A DNA stretch of 64,000 nucleotides from a phage, in sequence record PZ445440.1; one strand, written 5' to 3'. Numbering within the stretch: the first letter of the stretch is position 1; every line of letters starts with the position of its first letter. The translations under genes were made by a program, and so were the position numbers. Below the pieces are notes generated by a model. It did not search any database. It saw only the letters and a list, made by a program, of their open reading frames with translations, and was not told the origin of the DNA. Positions 4,538-38,252 of the stretch are shown piece by piece.

Positions 4538-6109
4538 ATGAAATTTAATATCTTAAGTTTGTTTGCTCCATGGGCAAAAATGGACGAACGTGATTACAAA
4601 GACCAAGAAAAAGAAAATTTAGAATCTATCACCACACCAAAATTAGACGACGGCGCTAAAGAATACGAAGTATCTGAAAATGAAGCACAGCAAACATATA
4701 ATGCTATGTTTCAGAGAATGTTCGGTAGCCAAGAACCAGGGCTCAAATCAACGCGTGAATTAATCGATACGTATCGAAATTTGATGACGAACTATGAAGT
4801 GGATAATGCAGTCTCTGAAATAGTTTCCGATGCTATCGTATATGAAGATGATACAGAAGTCGTTTCTATAAATTTAGACAACACAAAATTTAGTCCAAAT
4901 ATCAAATCAATGATGTCGGATGAATTTAACGAAGTGTTAAATCATTTATCTTTCCAACGTAAAGGTTCAGATCATTTTAGACGTTGGTATGTGGATTCTC
5001 GAATTTTCTTCCATAAAATTATTGACCCTAAACGCCCTAAAGAAGGTATTAAAGAGCTTCGTCGTTTAGACCCACGTCAAGTTCAATATGTCCGTGAAGT
5101 TATTACAACCACTGAAGCCGGTGTTAAAATAGTCAAGGGTTATAAAGAATATTTCATTTATGACACATCACACGAATCTTATGCTTGTGATGGTCGCATA
5201 TATGAAGCTGGCACAAAAATAAAAATCCCTAAAGCCGCAATTGTTTATGCCCATTCTGGTTTAGTTGATTGTTGTGGTAAAAATATCATTGGTTATTTGC
5301 ATCGGGCTATTAAGCCGGCGAACCAATTAAAACTTCTTGAAGATGCCGTCGTAATTTATCGTATTACTCGTGCTCCTGATCGTCGTGTATGGTACGTTGA
5401 TACAGGTAATATGCCTTCAAGAAAAGCAGCAGAACATATGCAACATGTTATGAATACGATGAAAAACCGTATTGCATATGATGCTACTACAGGCAAGATT
5501 AAAAACCAGCAGCATATTATGTCGATGACCGAAGATTATTGGTTACAACGACGTGATGGTAAAGCAGTAACAGAAGTTGATACATTACCGGGTGCAGATA
5601 ATACTGGAAATATGGAAGATGTACGTTGGTTCCGTAATGCGCTTTATATGGCTTTACGTATTCCTATTACCCGTATTCCAAGTGACCAAGGTGGTATACA
5701 GTTTGATGCTGGTACTTCTATTACACGAGATGAATTGTCGTTTGGTAAATTTATTCGTGAGCTGCAACATAAATTTGAAGAGATATTCCTAGACCCGCTT
5801 AAAACTAATTTAATTCTTAAAGGAATTATTACAGAAGACGAGTGGAATGATGAAATAAATAATATTAAGATAAAATTTCATCGGGATAGTTATTTCTCGG
5901 AATTAAAGGATGCTGAGATTCTGGAGCGTCGTATTAATATGCTTCAGATGGCCGAACCATTTATTGGTAAATATATTTCTCACAGAACAGCTATGAAAGA
6001 TATTCTTCAGATGTCTGATGAGGAAATTGAACAAGAGGCTAAGCAAATTGAAGAAGAGTCGAAAGAGGCTCGTTTCCAAGACCCCGACCAAGAACAAGAG
6101 GATTTTTAA
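4538..6109 (+). CDS. 20: Portal vertex protein gp20
   Basis: 523 aa; strong similarity to recalled T4 gp20; late promoter at 4502-4509. Confidence 0.95.
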
Positions 6110-7444: not shown

Positions 7445-8257
7445 ATGATCAAAGAACAACTTTTGAAAGAAGCTCAGAACATCGAGACTTCAGTTGCTCT
7501 TAATAGTGTTTTCGAATCAGTAGAACTGTCTCCGGACGTTAAAGCTAATTTCAGCACTGTATTCGAAGCCACCGTTAAGCAGGAAGCAGTCAAACTGGCT
7601 GAATCTCATATCAAAGCCATCGCCGAAAAGGCTGAAGAAGAAGTTGAAAAGGCCAAAGAAGATGCTGAAGAGAAAGCTGATAAAAAATTGGCTGAACAAG
7701 CTTCTAAATTCCTAGACCATCTTGCAAAAGAATGGCTCGCAGAAAACCAAATCGCAGTTGATAAAGGCATTAAAGCTGATTTGTTCGAATCCATGCTTGG
7801 TGGTCTGAAAGAACTGTTTGTTGAACATAACGTTGTTGTTCCAGAAGAATCTGTAGATGTTGTAGCAGAAATGGAAGAAGAGCTGGCCGAACATAAAGAA
7901 GAAACCGCTCGTTTGTTCGAAGAAGTTACCAAACGTGATGCATATATCAATTACGTTCAGCGTGAAACCGCTATTAATGAAAGCGTAAAAGACCTGACTG
8001 AATCTCAGAAAGAAAAAGTTATTGGCCTGGTTGAAGGTATGGATTATTCTGACGCATTTGGTACTAAGTTAACTGCTATTGTAGAAATGGTTAAAGGTTC
8101 TACTAAAGAAGAAGCCGCTATTACCGAAAGTATAAATACAGTTGACAATGACGCTGCCGGTCTTAATTTTGTTGCCGAAGCAGTTGACACTACCACAACT
8201 CAGGTAGAACAGAATTCTAATGTAAGTTTATATGCGAAAGTCGCATCTCGTTTCTAA
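7445..8257 (+). CDS. 22: Prohead scaffold protein gp22
   Basis: 270 aa, E/K-rich coiled-coil character; late promoter at 7407-7414. Confidence 0.9.
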   Translation: MIKEQLLKEAQNIETSVALNSVFESVELSPDVKANFSTVFEATVKQEAVKLAESHIKAIAEKAEEEVEKAKEDAEEKADKKLAEQASKFLDHLAKEWLAENQIAVDKGIKADLFESMLGGLKELFVEHNVVVPEESVDVVAEMEEELAEHKEETARLFEEVTKRDAYINYVQRETAINESVKDLTESQKEKVIGLVEGMDYSDAFGTKLTAIVEMVKGSTKEEAAITESINTVDNDAAGLNFVAEAVDTTTTQVEQNSNVSLYAKVASRF

Positions 8258-33327: not shown

Positions 33328-33451
33328 TTTAAATTCTCAATTCGAGATAATATTTAGTAGCCACGTTCGTCTGAATTTCACCTTCTTTCGACAAGTCTCT
33401 CAGTTGTAGGCTACCGCTTAGAAGAGTGTTCTCTTCATATAGTTATTTATA

Positions 33452-33814: not shown

Positions 33815-33839
33815 ATAATACCATACTATTCGTAAAGCA
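33815..33839 (-). promoter_or_regulatory. Middle promoter (MotA box TGCTTTA + TATTAT) for gene 31
   Basis: reverse complement ATGCTTTACGAATAGTATGGTATTAT. Confidence 0.5.
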
Positions 33840-33841
33840 TA

Positions 33842-34150
33842 TTACATAAGAAGCAAACGTTCTACCGGAGTACCGTCAACCGAAATTACTTTATCAAGGC
33901 GGAAAGAACGCCACTGACCTAACTTGGTATCGAATGCTCGAACTGATTCACGAGGTTCAGAACGAACTTCTGTTGCCGGATTGTTATTTTCATATTTGAC
34001 TTCAAGTTCATCGCGCGAAGCAAACATAGTGCGTACCTCACCGTTAGCCTTTTCAAATACAACACAATGAACGCCTACAGACAGAATAGTTTTAATACGT
34101 TCACGAAGAACCATAGTTTCTTGTTCAGTTAAAATCATATTATTCACCAC
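33842..34150 (-). CDS. Hypothetical protein, 102 aa
   Basis: ORF between cd and 31; overlaps cd end. Confidence 0.5.
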   Translation of the reverse strand: MVNNMILTEQETMVLRERIKTILSVGVHCVVFEKANGEVRTMFASRDELEVKYENNNPATEVRSEPRESVRAFDTKLGQWRSFRLDKVISVDGTPVERLLLM

Positions 34151-34721
34151 AAAAGTTTCGGATTTGTTCCCAATTCAGAGAACGAAGATTATTACGAGAG
34201 TACTGAATTACTTCAATACCAGCTTGTTTAAGAATGTCTGTCCAATTTTCAGGAGACCGGTCATATAATTCTGCATATACAACCTTTTTAATGCCTGACT
34301 GTGTGATAGCTTTAGTGCAATCAGGACACGGAGAAAGCGTAGTATATAACGTAGCACCTTCAATAGAATTACCTTTACGAGCAGCAAACAAAATTGCATT
34401 CAATTCCGCATGGATTTCGTTATTAGCAGACCATGCACTATGAGCGGCCCGATGTTCTTTAGCCAAAACAAAATTATCTGCCCGTCCAAATGCTGTAGTG
34501 CCTTCTTTATGCCCAGCAACGATGACCGGGCTTGGTTTATTCTTCAACCAACCTTGTTCGGTAGCATGGTCACAACAGTTTGTACCACCTGAAGGAGACC
34601 CATTATAACCCGTAGAGATAATGCGCCCATCTTTTTCAATGACGGCACCAACTTTCCATGAACAACATTTTGATTCTTGAGAAATCAAATAAGCAATTTG
34701 AAGATATGTGCTAGCTTTCAT
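34140..34721 (-). CDS. cd: dCMP deaminase
   Basis: 193 aa; zinc-binding HAE and PCxxC motifs; matches T4 Cd. Confidence 0.9.
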   Translation of the reverse strand: MKASTYLQIAYLISQESKCCSWKVGAVIEKDGRIISTGYNGSPSGGTNCCDHATEQGWLKNKPSPVIVAGHKEGTTAFGRADNFVLAKEHRAAHSAWSANNEIHAELNAILFAARKGNSIEGATLYTTLSPCPDCTKAITQSGIKKVVYAELYDRSPENWTDILKQAGIEVIQYSRNNLRSLNWEQIRNFCGE

Positions 34722-35713
34722 TATTGAACCTTATTAATATAAGTTAACAGCTCTTTAGTTTGTTCCCAACTGATGCACGCATCGGTAACGGAAACGCCAT
34801 AGGACATATTATCAGAAATTTTTTGATTTCCTTCATGTAGGAATGATTCTATCATAATTCCTTTGACCAAATCATTAGCTGCTAAATTTTTACCAATACC
34901 AATTTGATTGCTATAATGCCCATCAGCGTTTGCATGGCTACAGTCAACCATTACATAATGATTCAGACCTACTGCCCTTGCTTTGTTAGAAGCTTCTTGA
35001 ATATCAGAAGAATGATAGTTCGGGCCGTTGGTCCCGCCACGCAATACGATATGCGTATTCTGATTACCTTCAGCTTCAACAATGCCTACAGTACCATCGA
35101 CGTCCATACCCATATACCGATGAGGCCAGGCGGCACTATACATCGCGTCTGTAGCTACTTTAATAGAACCATTAGTTGCGTTCTTGAAGCCTACGCACAT
35201 CGGTAGACCTGAAGCAATTTCACGATGTGTCTGACTTTCAGTCGTACGGGCGCCAATAGCAACCCATGAGAAAATACCAGAAAGATACTTAATCGTGAAT
35301 GGGTCTAATACTTCAGTTGCTAATGGAAGTCCCATACGTAGAAGTTTACGACACAATGTTCGTGCAACTATAAGTCCGTGGTTCATATCAAAACTTCCGT
35401 CAAGATATGGATCATTTACAAGACCTTTCCAACCTACGGTAGTTCGAGGCTTTTCAAAATAAACGCGCATCACTAACAGAACATTAGGAAGACGAGTTTG
35501 AAGTTCAGCCAGACGTTTGCCGTATTCAACAGCAGCAATAGGGTCATGAATTGAACAAGGACCTACAACAATAAGTTTGCGTGGGTCTTCACCGTTCATA
35601 ATCGAATTAACTTGTTCGCGATGAGAAGCCACTTGTGAGGCGTAAGCTTCCGACAAAGGAATAATCTCGGCCAGTTCTTTTGGAGAAATAAGTTTTCCGA
35701 CGACAGGTAACAT
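34721..35713 (-). CDS. 3-deoxy-D-arabino-heptulosonate-7-phosphate (DAHP) synthase, class I (AroF/AroG-like)
   Basis: 330 aa; motifs GPCSIHD, MRVYFEKPRTTVGWKGL, GARTTESQTHRE, VGFKN, VDCSHAN, EGNQ, YGVSVTDACISWE; stop overlaps cd start (TAATG). Confidence 0.85.
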   Translation of the reverse strand: MLPVVGKLISPKELAEIIPLSEAYASQVASHREQVNSIMNGEDPRKLIVVGPCSIHDPIAAVEYGKRLAELQTRLPNVLLVMRVYFEKPRTTVGWKGLVNDPYLDGSFDMNHGLIVARTLCRKLLRMGLPLATEVLDPFTIKYLSGIFSWVAIGARTTESQTHREIASGLPMCVGFKNATNGSIKVATDAMYSAAWPHRYMGMDVDGTVGIVEAEGNQNTHIVLRGGTNGPNYHSSDIQEASNKARAVGLNHYVMVDCSHANADGHYSNQIGIGKNLAANDLVKGIMIESFLHEGNQKISDNMSYGVSVTDACISWEQTKELLTYINKVQ

Positions 35714-35833
35714 AACAATCCTTAGGAGATATAAACAGATTCTGATTCAACAATACCTTTAACCGGATTAGACAGGCTAAGTTGGTAGTGCTCAGATTTA
35801 TGACCATTCTCGATAGTAATGAGATAGCTCTCA

Positions 35834-36070
35834 TTATAGTGTTCCATATACTCGAGTTGCTTCAACAAGACCATCACTGCCTAATTTAAGATTAGTAATT
35901 TGGTCACCATCTTTAGGATTAACGATTATGAGAAAAGAACGTGGAGATTCTTGAATAACTCGTAATGTTGCATCTTGGAAACGTTCAGACACTTTATTGA
36001 TGAGTGCTTGAGCAAATTCTTTTACTTTAATCTGAAATTCGTGTACTGTAATTGGGTTTTCACTTAGCAT
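35834..36070 (-). CDS. Hypothetical protein, 78 aa, first gene after early promoter upstream of DAHP synthase
   Basis: ORF plus early promoter at 36099-36128. Confidence 0.5.
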   Translation of the reverse strand: MLSENPITVHEFQIKVKEFAQALINKVSERFQDATLRVIQESPRSFLIIVNPKDGDQITNLKLGSDGLVEATRVYGTL

Positions 36071-36098
36071 TTCTATTTCCTCATTTGTTGGTAGAGTT

Positions 36099-36128
36099 AT
36101 AGTATCACAACTCTACGGTGTTGTAAAC
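36099..36128 (-). promoter_or_regulatory. T4-type early promoter
   Basis: reverse complement GTTTACAACACCGTAGAGTTGTGATACTAT. Confidence 0.55.
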
Positions 36129-36404
36129 TTAAATTGCAAAACATTTAATTTCTTGTGAATCGAAATCAACTTCGCACTGAATTACTAGTTCAGCATCAAG
36201 TCCAAACACAACAATCACATGAGCCGAGCTGGGCAACAGTGTAACAGACACAGAATCCACTTGGTCAGGCACCAACGTATTCAAAACGTAGAGTAGTTCA
36301 GAGTGGATCTTAAGCTCGGTAGCCGTGTCCAGCTTATCAAAGAAATGATTTGCGATAATCTGACTAAAAACGACCTTTACAATTTCAGAATATTTAGGGA
36401 ACAT
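36129..36404 (-). CDS. Hypothetical protein, 91 aa
   Basis: ORF in pseT-cd interval. Confidence 0.45.
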   Translation of the reverse strand: MFPKYSEIVKVVFSQIIANHFFDKLDTATELKIHSELLYVLNTLVPDQVDSVSVTLLPSSAHVIVVFGLDAELVIQCEVDFDSQEIKCFAI

Positions 36405-36411
36405 AATTACC

Positions 36412-36636
36412 TCAGTGTACAGTATTTACTTTAACACGAACAACAAATTGCTCGGTCGGTTCGCCTACAGGAACAAACTCTACATGATATTCGCCTTTGT
36501 AACGAGTATTCAGGTCGTTACGAATTTCGGTAAGCTTGTTGATTAATGTAGAACTCATATTAAGTCCCACTAGTTTACGAAGCATTTTGTATGCTTCATC
36601 TTCGATTTCATGATGTTTATCGCACATAGTTTTCAT
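36412..36636 (-). CDS. Hypothetical protein, 74 aa
   Basis: ORF in pseT-cd interval. Confidence 0.45.
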   Translation of the reverse strand: MKTMCDKHHEIEDEAYKMLRKLVGLNMSSTLINKLTEIRNDLNTRYKGEYHVEFVPVGEPTEQFVVRVKVNTVH

Positions 36637-36807
36637 TTAACCATTCAATTGCCTGGTCGACGTTATCAAATATACCACCGTCCAAACGTTCTTCATACTC
36701 ATAGTCCAGCACATCAATACCGAACTGTCCATTTACTAAAGGCCAGGCTACAAACAAATATTCTTTATGCTGTTCGATGGCCTCAATCACTTCATATAAT
36801 CGTTTCA

Positions 36808-36808
<1 letters not shown>
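36617..36808 (-). CDS. Hypothetical protein, 63 aa
   Basis: ORF coupled to pseT stop. Confidence 0.4.
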
Positions 36809-37894
<1,086 letters not shown>

Positions 37895-38222: not shown

Positions 38223-38252
38223 ATTATACTCTGCTCCTGAGAGTTTGTAAAC
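38223..38252 (-). promoter_or_regulatory. T4-type early promoter with consensus TATAAT -10
   Basis: reverse complement GTTTACAAACTCTCAGGAGCAGAGTATAAT. Confidence 0.6.

Follow-up and report, generated by a model that had tools for sequence, protein, structure and literature searches.

The window, by which we mean the whole 64,000-nt stretch of phage DNA (PZ445440.1) whose positions are used throughout, is identical (100%) over 34000–37800 to Escherichia phage ChristianSchoenbein (Bas46, MZ501056.1, Mosigvirus phapec2). The annotation of MZ501056.1 lists pseT, three small hypotheticals, hypotheticals of 78 and 41 aa, a 'putative aldolase' and a dCMP deaminase, all on the (-) strand of the window; our own assignments for the part of this region examined here are given in Table 1. 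Neighbouring ORFs abut or overlap from cd.2 through the 41-aa ORF and the DAHP synthase gene to cd. The initial annotation of this DNA described a 78-aa ORF followed by the synthase, and both ORFs are indeed present, but it missed the 41-aa ORF that intervenes.

Table 1. Features of the cd.3–cd region, in window coordinates.
Feature	Position	Strand	Remarks
cd.3 orthologue (DUF7355)	36129..36404	(-)	gene upstream of promoter; diverged allele
T4-type early promoter (predicted)	36099..36128	(-)	reads GTTTACAACACCGTAGAGTTGTGATACTAT; GTTTACA-N17-TACTAT
Inverted repeat GTAGAGTT / AACTCTAC	36091..36116	(-)	encloses -10; putative stem-loop part of PeSL-type cassette
cd.2 orthologue, 78 aa	35834..36070	(-)	Pfam DUF7320, phrog_1504
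41-aa ORF, bas46_0049, phrog_15876	35722..35847	(-)	chimeric remnant between cd.2 and DAHP synthase
Direct repeat, left copy ATAATGAGAGCTA	35825..35837	(-)	13 nt; bounds 1113-bp insert
Class I-alpha DAHP synthase, 330 aa	34721..35713	(-)	PF00793; putative cassette cargo
Direct repeat, right copy ATAATGAAAGCTA	34712..34724	(-)	overlaps cd start codon
cd (dCMP deaminase)	34140..34721	(-)	PF00383, E 2.4e-26, and public annotation

The near-consensus early promoter that the initial annotation had placed ahead of the 78-aa ORF is borne out at 36128–36099, and stands far above chance when the phage-specific pattern is used to find it. Its parts are a -35 element GTTTACA (36128–36122), a TG (36107–36106) and a -10 element TACTAT (36104–36099), which as sigma-70 hexamers read TTTACA-N17-TACTAT with an extended -10 of the TGn type (TG, one base, then the -10). 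The stop codon of the cd.3-like gene (36131–36129) adjoins the motif directly, the 22 nt upstream of the promoter form a UP-like region of about 86% A+T, and downstream lie a Shine–Dalgarno GAGG (36082–36079) and the cd.2 ATG at 36070. This is the layout of T4 early promoters (UP/-35/TGn/-10), which are used by the unmodified host polymerase immediately after infection. Transcription is predicted to start at the A at 36092, 7 nt after the -10, on the assumption that the number in the T4 promoter name Pe133295 (see below) is a start coordinate; the leader would then be 22 nt long and include the GAGG.

How far such a motif exceeds chance depends on the pattern that is searched. Scored against the plain Escherichia coli consensus the promoter reaches 9 of 12, and such sites number 33 in the window against 29 expected from shuffled sequence, so that a generic sigma-70 scan fails to set it apart from chance and a phage-specific pattern is needed. 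With GTTTAC-N18-TAYWAT there are eight matches against 0.11 expected (100 shuffles), all eight on the coding strand, and the looser GTTTAC-N17-19-TAnnnT finds 12 candidates on the (-) strand of the window and none on the (+) strand. These 12 GTTTAC-type candidates have in common a GGA near -20 and a TGTG before the -10, and TACTAT is their most frequent -10 element.

A promoter is already recorded at this site in coliphage T4, where a note in NC_000866 mentions 'the early promoter Pe133295 between cd.2 and cd.3'. Judged by alignment and gene order, the promoter at 36128–36099 is the orthologue of Pe133295. Aligned with one another, the window, T4 and RB14 have in common GTTTAC, a GTAGAGTTGTGATAYTAT core and a AAATGAGGAAA ribosome-binding region, and T4 and the window are alike in the site itself (just after the cd.3 stop and ahead of cd.2), in the GTTTAC -35, TGn and TAYWAT -10 elements, in the enclosing inverted repeat and in the same ribosome-binding region. 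They differ in the -10, which is TATTAT in T4 and TACTAT in the window, in the base after GTTTAC (T in T4, A in the window), and in what follows, which is cd.2–cd.1–cd in T4 and cd.2, the 41-aa ORF, DAHP synthase and cd here. In the published T4 time course cd.2 is early in both RNA and protein, whereas cd.3, cd.4, pseT, cd.1 and cd are early as RNA and middle as protein; early Cd.2 protein with middle products from the upstream cd.3 and cd.4 fits a promoter directly before cd.2.

The start of cd.2 itself varies among these phages. Near its 5′ end the T4 gene (locus L003, about 5262–5275) has one extra G relative to RB14 and the window, so that the frame of the conserved ATG stops early, and the annotated protein, which begins at a GTG further downstream, differs at its N-terminus. 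The RB69 gene (locus L014, about 7490–7503) has AGG in place of the conserved ATG, and an upstream ATG is annotated as its start.

The inverted repeat around the -10 places this promoter near a class of element described in T4-like phages as promoter-early stem-loops, or PeSLs, which consist of an AT-rich region, an early promoter and a stem-loop followed by a Shine–Dalgarno sequence and start codon, the stem-loop lying mostly between the hexamers or overlapping the -10 (Arbiol et al., 2010, PMC2839356; Comeau et al., 2014, PMC4122927). PeSLs mark sites of module exchange, and some of those of RB49 and phi1 acted as strong promoters and as terminators in reporter assays (PMC2839356, PMC4122927). 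The promoter at 36128–36099 matches the T4/PST PeSL consensus TTTACW-N17-TAYWAT given in the same two studies. Folded as RNA, the repeat (36116–36091) has a free energy of -12.6 kcal/mol (z -4.9), a value equalled by none of 200 shuffles. T4, RB14 and RB69 retain the stem, apart from two one-sided changes that leave G-U pairs. It is not followed by a U-run, and of the window's 12 promoter candidates only two (36128 and 38252) have a hairpin beyond that of shuffled sequence. An alignment fold among the orthologues found no compensatory pairs in the stem, so that conservation of the stem is inseparable from conservation of the promoter; scans of IMG/VR with Cd.2 yielded two and then 14 loci, mostly of Dhakavirus, whose variation is too small for a covariation test. 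A search of Rfam with 35500–36500 gave no match.

At the level of sequence, then, the promoter and its stem-loop have every feature by which PeSLs are recognized. The likeness extends from the AT-rich region, early promoter, stem over the -10, Shine–Dalgarno plus ATG and intergenic position to the surroundings, as the element adjoins indels and allele replacements between relatives. Straight after the promoter, RB14 and the Dhakavirus and Gaprivervirus genomes have an extra ORF of 175–184 aa, for which Pfam returned no match. On the other side, cd.3 is 60–70% identical in nucleotide sequence to RB69 and to a metagenomic Mosigvirus locus (L016) inside the gene, with 96–100% on its two flanks and 90–100% from the promoter onward, and the right-hand boundary of this diverged cd.3 allele coincides with the promoter/PeSL, which looks like cassette replacement. 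The junction at which the synthase is inserted is that of the cd.2 stop and cd start, not the PeSL.

Elements of the same design occur elsewhere. A stem of unrelated sequence, CCGGAAGT / ACTTCCGG, surrounds the -10 of a promoter between pseT and the next gene in three phages, Edwardsiella PEi20, Klebsiella F48 and Kosakonia 305. The Kanagawavirus and Marfavirus PeSLs with this stem (loci L004, L005 and L012, at 1681, 1675 and 1442, respectively) lie between pseT and a cd.4-like gene, one gene block further upstream than the element described here, and provide the early promoter nearest to the synthase of those phages. Within the window, a second PeSL-like element at 38223–38252 (-), GTTTACAAACTCTCAGGAGCAGAGTATAAT, has a GGAGCA / TGCTCC stem around its -10 (-13.7 kcal/mol, equalled by 2 of 200 shuffles) and precedes an ORF of 99 aa, a 'putative homing endonuclease' in the public record.

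The 78-aa product of the first gene behind the promoter matches DUF7320 over its full length (E 1.5e-35, 121.5 bits against a Pfam gathering cut-off of 27) as well as phrog_1504, and is 66–74% identical to the Cd.2 proteins of T4, Dhakavirus and Gaprivervirus in alignment (about 70–72% to T4 and RB14 by tblastn); it has the same position as T4 Cd.2 and shows no notable difference from it. That this ORF should be conserved in related phages, as the initial annotation expected, is amply confirmed by tblastn, which finds Cd.2 in about 800 phage records. In a confident AlphaFold model (pLDDT 89) a single long helix lies against an antiparallel sheet of four strands, a predicted fold that is generic and provides no link to DAHP synthase.

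Gene order across the T4-like phages shows that neither the promoter nor cd.2 is tied to the synthase. Between cd.3 and cd, T4 has the early promoter, cd.2 and cd.1; RB14, IME281 (Dhakavirus) and CJ20 (Gaprivervirus) have the promoter, the extra 175–184-aa ORF, cd.2 and cd.1; and RB69, which belongs to Mosigvirus as does the window, has only the promoter and cd.2. In PEi20 (Kanagawavirus) and F48 (Marfavirus) cd.3 adjoins or overlaps cd.2, which leaves no promoter between the two genes, and the synthase and cd follow; X20 (Winklervirus) carries cd.3, cd.2, the synthase, a cd.1 homologue and cd; Kosakonia phage 305 carries cd.3, cd.2 and cd; and SdyM_006 (Bragavirus) has an ORF other than DUF7320 followed by the synthase and a cd.1 homologue. 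Searches of Pfam with cd.1 and with the Bragavirus ORF upstream of the synthase gave no match. The description of the promoter as 'dedicated' to the synthase unit is therefore unsupported on two counts: the same promoter occupies the same place in T4, RB14 and RB69, all three of which lack the synthase, and in Kanagawavirus, Marfavirus and Winklervirus the synthase sits in the same slot, but behind a cd.3 and cd.2 that adjoin or overlap, so that the two have no promoter between them. By these comparisons the cd.2–cd interval is a variable slot: some phages have nothing in it, others cd.1, the synthase or the two together. Among Dhakavirus genomes in IMG/VR, a comparison of loci L019 and L020 with L017 and L018 shows cd.1 present in some and absent in others, and cd begins 6 nt after cd.2 where cd.1 is absent; the slot is thus polymorphic within more than one genus.

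The 41-aa ORF between cd.2 and the synthase holds a record of how this slot was filled. It matches positions 44–76 of DUF7320 (E 1.2e-6, 28.8 bits against the cut-off of 27) and is 44–47% identical to the C-termini of Kanagawavirus and Marfavirus Cd.2, against 26% to the adjoining Cd.2. Its codons 1–6 are the 3′ end of the resident cd.2 read out of frame, and the remainder is the C-terminal half of a foreign cd.2, so that the ORF is an insertion scar and probably no real gene; the 41-aa 'hypothetical protein' annotated across Mosigvirus genomes is thereby explained. A direct repeat of the form ATAATGA[G/A]AGCTA, with copies that match at 12 of 13 nt, flanks the 1113-bp segment that contains the scar ORF and the synthase. 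On either side of this segment RB69 agrees with the window; what it lacks is precisely these 1113 bp, and it has a single repeat copy, ATAATGAAAGCTA, in which the cd.2 stop overlaps the cd start. The simplest reading of these junctions is that a segment comprising the 3′ half of a cd.2, the synthase gene and a cd start came from a relative with the order cd.2–DAHPS–cd and that microhomology allowed it to be joined in where cd.2 meets cd; RB69 would either never have had the segment or have lost it between the repeats. Under insertion and deletion alike, the mobile segment includes neither the promoter nor the intact cd.2. The synthase can in this way be placed in time, as a cassette dropped into the variable cd.2–cd slot.

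Taken together, these comparisons lead us to a history that we hold to be probable: the window phage would have inherited a T4-family PeSL early promoter together with cd.2, and the synthase would have arrived later as a 1.1-kb cassette downstream of them. It is extremely improbable, in our view, that the promoter motif is instead a chance match in AT-rich DNA and that the unit is transcribed only from upstream promoters at 38252, 39658 and 40841. The score of 9 of 12 in a generic scan without excess over shuffles would be in keeping with such a match, but the abundance and uniform coding-strand orientation of the phage pattern, the intergenic position with Shine–Dalgarno and ATG, the base-for-base conservation with a recorded T4 promoter, and the early T4 Cd.2 protein beside middle cd.3 and cd.4 products all argue against it. 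A different question is whether the inverted repeat acts as DNA, that is, as an operator for a dimeric phage or host repressor and not as an RNA stem-loop. The repeat brackets the -10, a classic operator position, and in T4 the shut-off of early promoters, a few minutes into infection, does not depend on AsiA; set against this, promoters of the same design in other genera have unrelated arms (CCGGAAGT / ACTTCCGG), the two changes that separate the orthologues leave G-U pairs, as expected of RNA but not of a DNA half-site, and such a repeat is found at only two of the 12 promoters of the window, so that we regard an operator as unlikely.

Two further alternatives concern the synthase. The initial annotation suggested that the 78-aa protein could be a partner or regulator of the enzyme, and one might suppose along the same lines that the promoter evolved for the synthase or came with it. 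The cd.2 and synthase genes are adjacent and co-oriented, and Kanagawavirus, Marfavirus and Winklervirus likewise have a cd.2 homologue immediately before the synthase. This association nevertheless dissolves on wider sampling: T4, RB14, RB69, Dhakavirus and Gaprivervirus have promoter and cd.2 without the synthase, the roughly 800 records with Cd.2 compare with 213 phage records with the synthase, Bragavirus has a synthase with no DUF7320 gene upstream, the boundary of the insert falls after cd.2, and the predicted fold of Cd.2 is generic. We consider a partnership, or a promoter made for the synthase, very unlikely, and adjacency here is no evidence of one. To the possibility that the cassette is ancestral in Mosigvirus and was lost from RB69-like phages through the 13-nt direct repeats we give appreciable weight, though less than an even share: the 12-of-13-nt repeat flanks the segment, RB69 has exactly one copy, and about 140 records have a synthase at least 95% identical. 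Against an ancestral cassette, the half cd.2 left as a scar beside a complete and differently related cd.2 shows that the segment was at one time imported from a Kanagawavirus/Marfavirus-type relative. Ancestral presence would change only the date of import and would leave the conclusion on the promoter unaffected.

Under the history we favour, in which promoter and cd.2 are inherited and the synthase is a later cassette, the following course of events may be proposed. Straight after infection, host sigma-70 RNA polymerase would use the AT-rich upstream region, GTTTACA, TGn and TACTAT, and transcription from near 36092 would run through cd.2, the 41-aa ORF, the synthase and cd. Only in transcripts that come in from promoters further upstream would the hairpin enclosing the -10 form, and, by analogy with the PeSLs that have been assayed, it may attenuate this read-through; if it does, the promoter at 36128–36099 would set the level of the unit. 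The 1113-bp cassette from a cd.2–DAHPS–cd relative would have entered right at the point where the stop of cd.2 meets the start of cd, in the slot that in T4 holds cd.1, leaving half a cd.2 as a scar and bringing the synthase under a pre-existing promoter.

The initial annotation further held that the synthase is expressed immediately after infection, and here the part that stands is early co-transcription, which is likely, while a 'dedicated' promoter is not supported. The synthase ATG (35713) is 379 nt downstream of the predicted start, and neither a terminator-like site nor a MotA-type promoter was found from 36100 to 34140 (-), in a scan for middle promoters that used a strict pattern and that deviant MotA boxes could escape. 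With neither of them intervening before cd ends, the synthase is likely to be expressed prereplicatively. The T4 middle promoter Pcd has a mapped start at 132839, inside cd.1; inspection by eye showed no obvious MotA box for this start, and we use only its position inside cd.1. As cd.1, and with it Pcd, is absent here, the early promoter plus read-through would probably be what chiefly drives synthase and cd alike. The two genes therefore most likely belong to the prereplicative set, with transcripts from the early promoter and from any read-through; homology with T4 is the ground on which promoter use, start site and timing in the window phage are predicted. Beyond cd, the first MotA-type middle promoter found, a good match (ATATGCTTTAC-N-TATTAT, 33816–33842, (-)) orthologous to T4 P31, lies before gene 31, and a late-promoter-like TATAAATA occurs at 33451 (-) before rIII.

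The cargo of the cassette is a recognizable class I-alpha enzyme (PF00793, E 5e-75; phrog_5045) whose closest match among solved structures is E. coli AroF (6agm, E 5e-105). The motifs GPCSIHD, KPRTT, GARTTESQ, GFKN, LRGG, DCSH, IES and TDACI of E. coli AroF/AroG are conserved in the phage enzyme, and its individual metal and PEP ligands we take to be those of the AroG structure. Its N-terminus is about nine residues shorter than that of AroF. Specifically, three AroG residues reported either to contact the inhibitor or to confer feedback resistance when mutated, P150, Q151 and S180, correspond to Ile141, Lys142 and Pro171 in the phage synthase, and Ile, Lys and Pro are invariant at these positions in the phage enzymes of five genera, compared over the window and its homologues at loci L004, L005, L006 and L007. 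The canonical aromatic amino acid feedback site (P150, Q151 and S180 of AroG plus the N-terminal segment) is thus not present in the phage synthase, and it is reasonable to infer that the enzyme has lost classical feedback inhibition, a property that can be tested. Our search of the literature found no study dedicated to phage DAHP synthases.

As a finding in itself, the promoter is of little importance: it is the re-identification of a recorded T4 early promoter and of a known, conserved gene, and is useful for annotation. Considerably more tentative is the possibility that the loss of the feedback site in this clade of phage synthases and a resident immediate-early promoter, next to cd, combine to let the phage feed the shikimate pathway without regulation already in the first minute of infection. 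We find this possible but doubtful. If true, a single PeSL would drive both synthase and cd in the absence of cd.1 and its middle promoter, and infection could be supplied with chorismate-derived folate for dTMP and hm-dCMP synthesis, or with aromatic amino acids.
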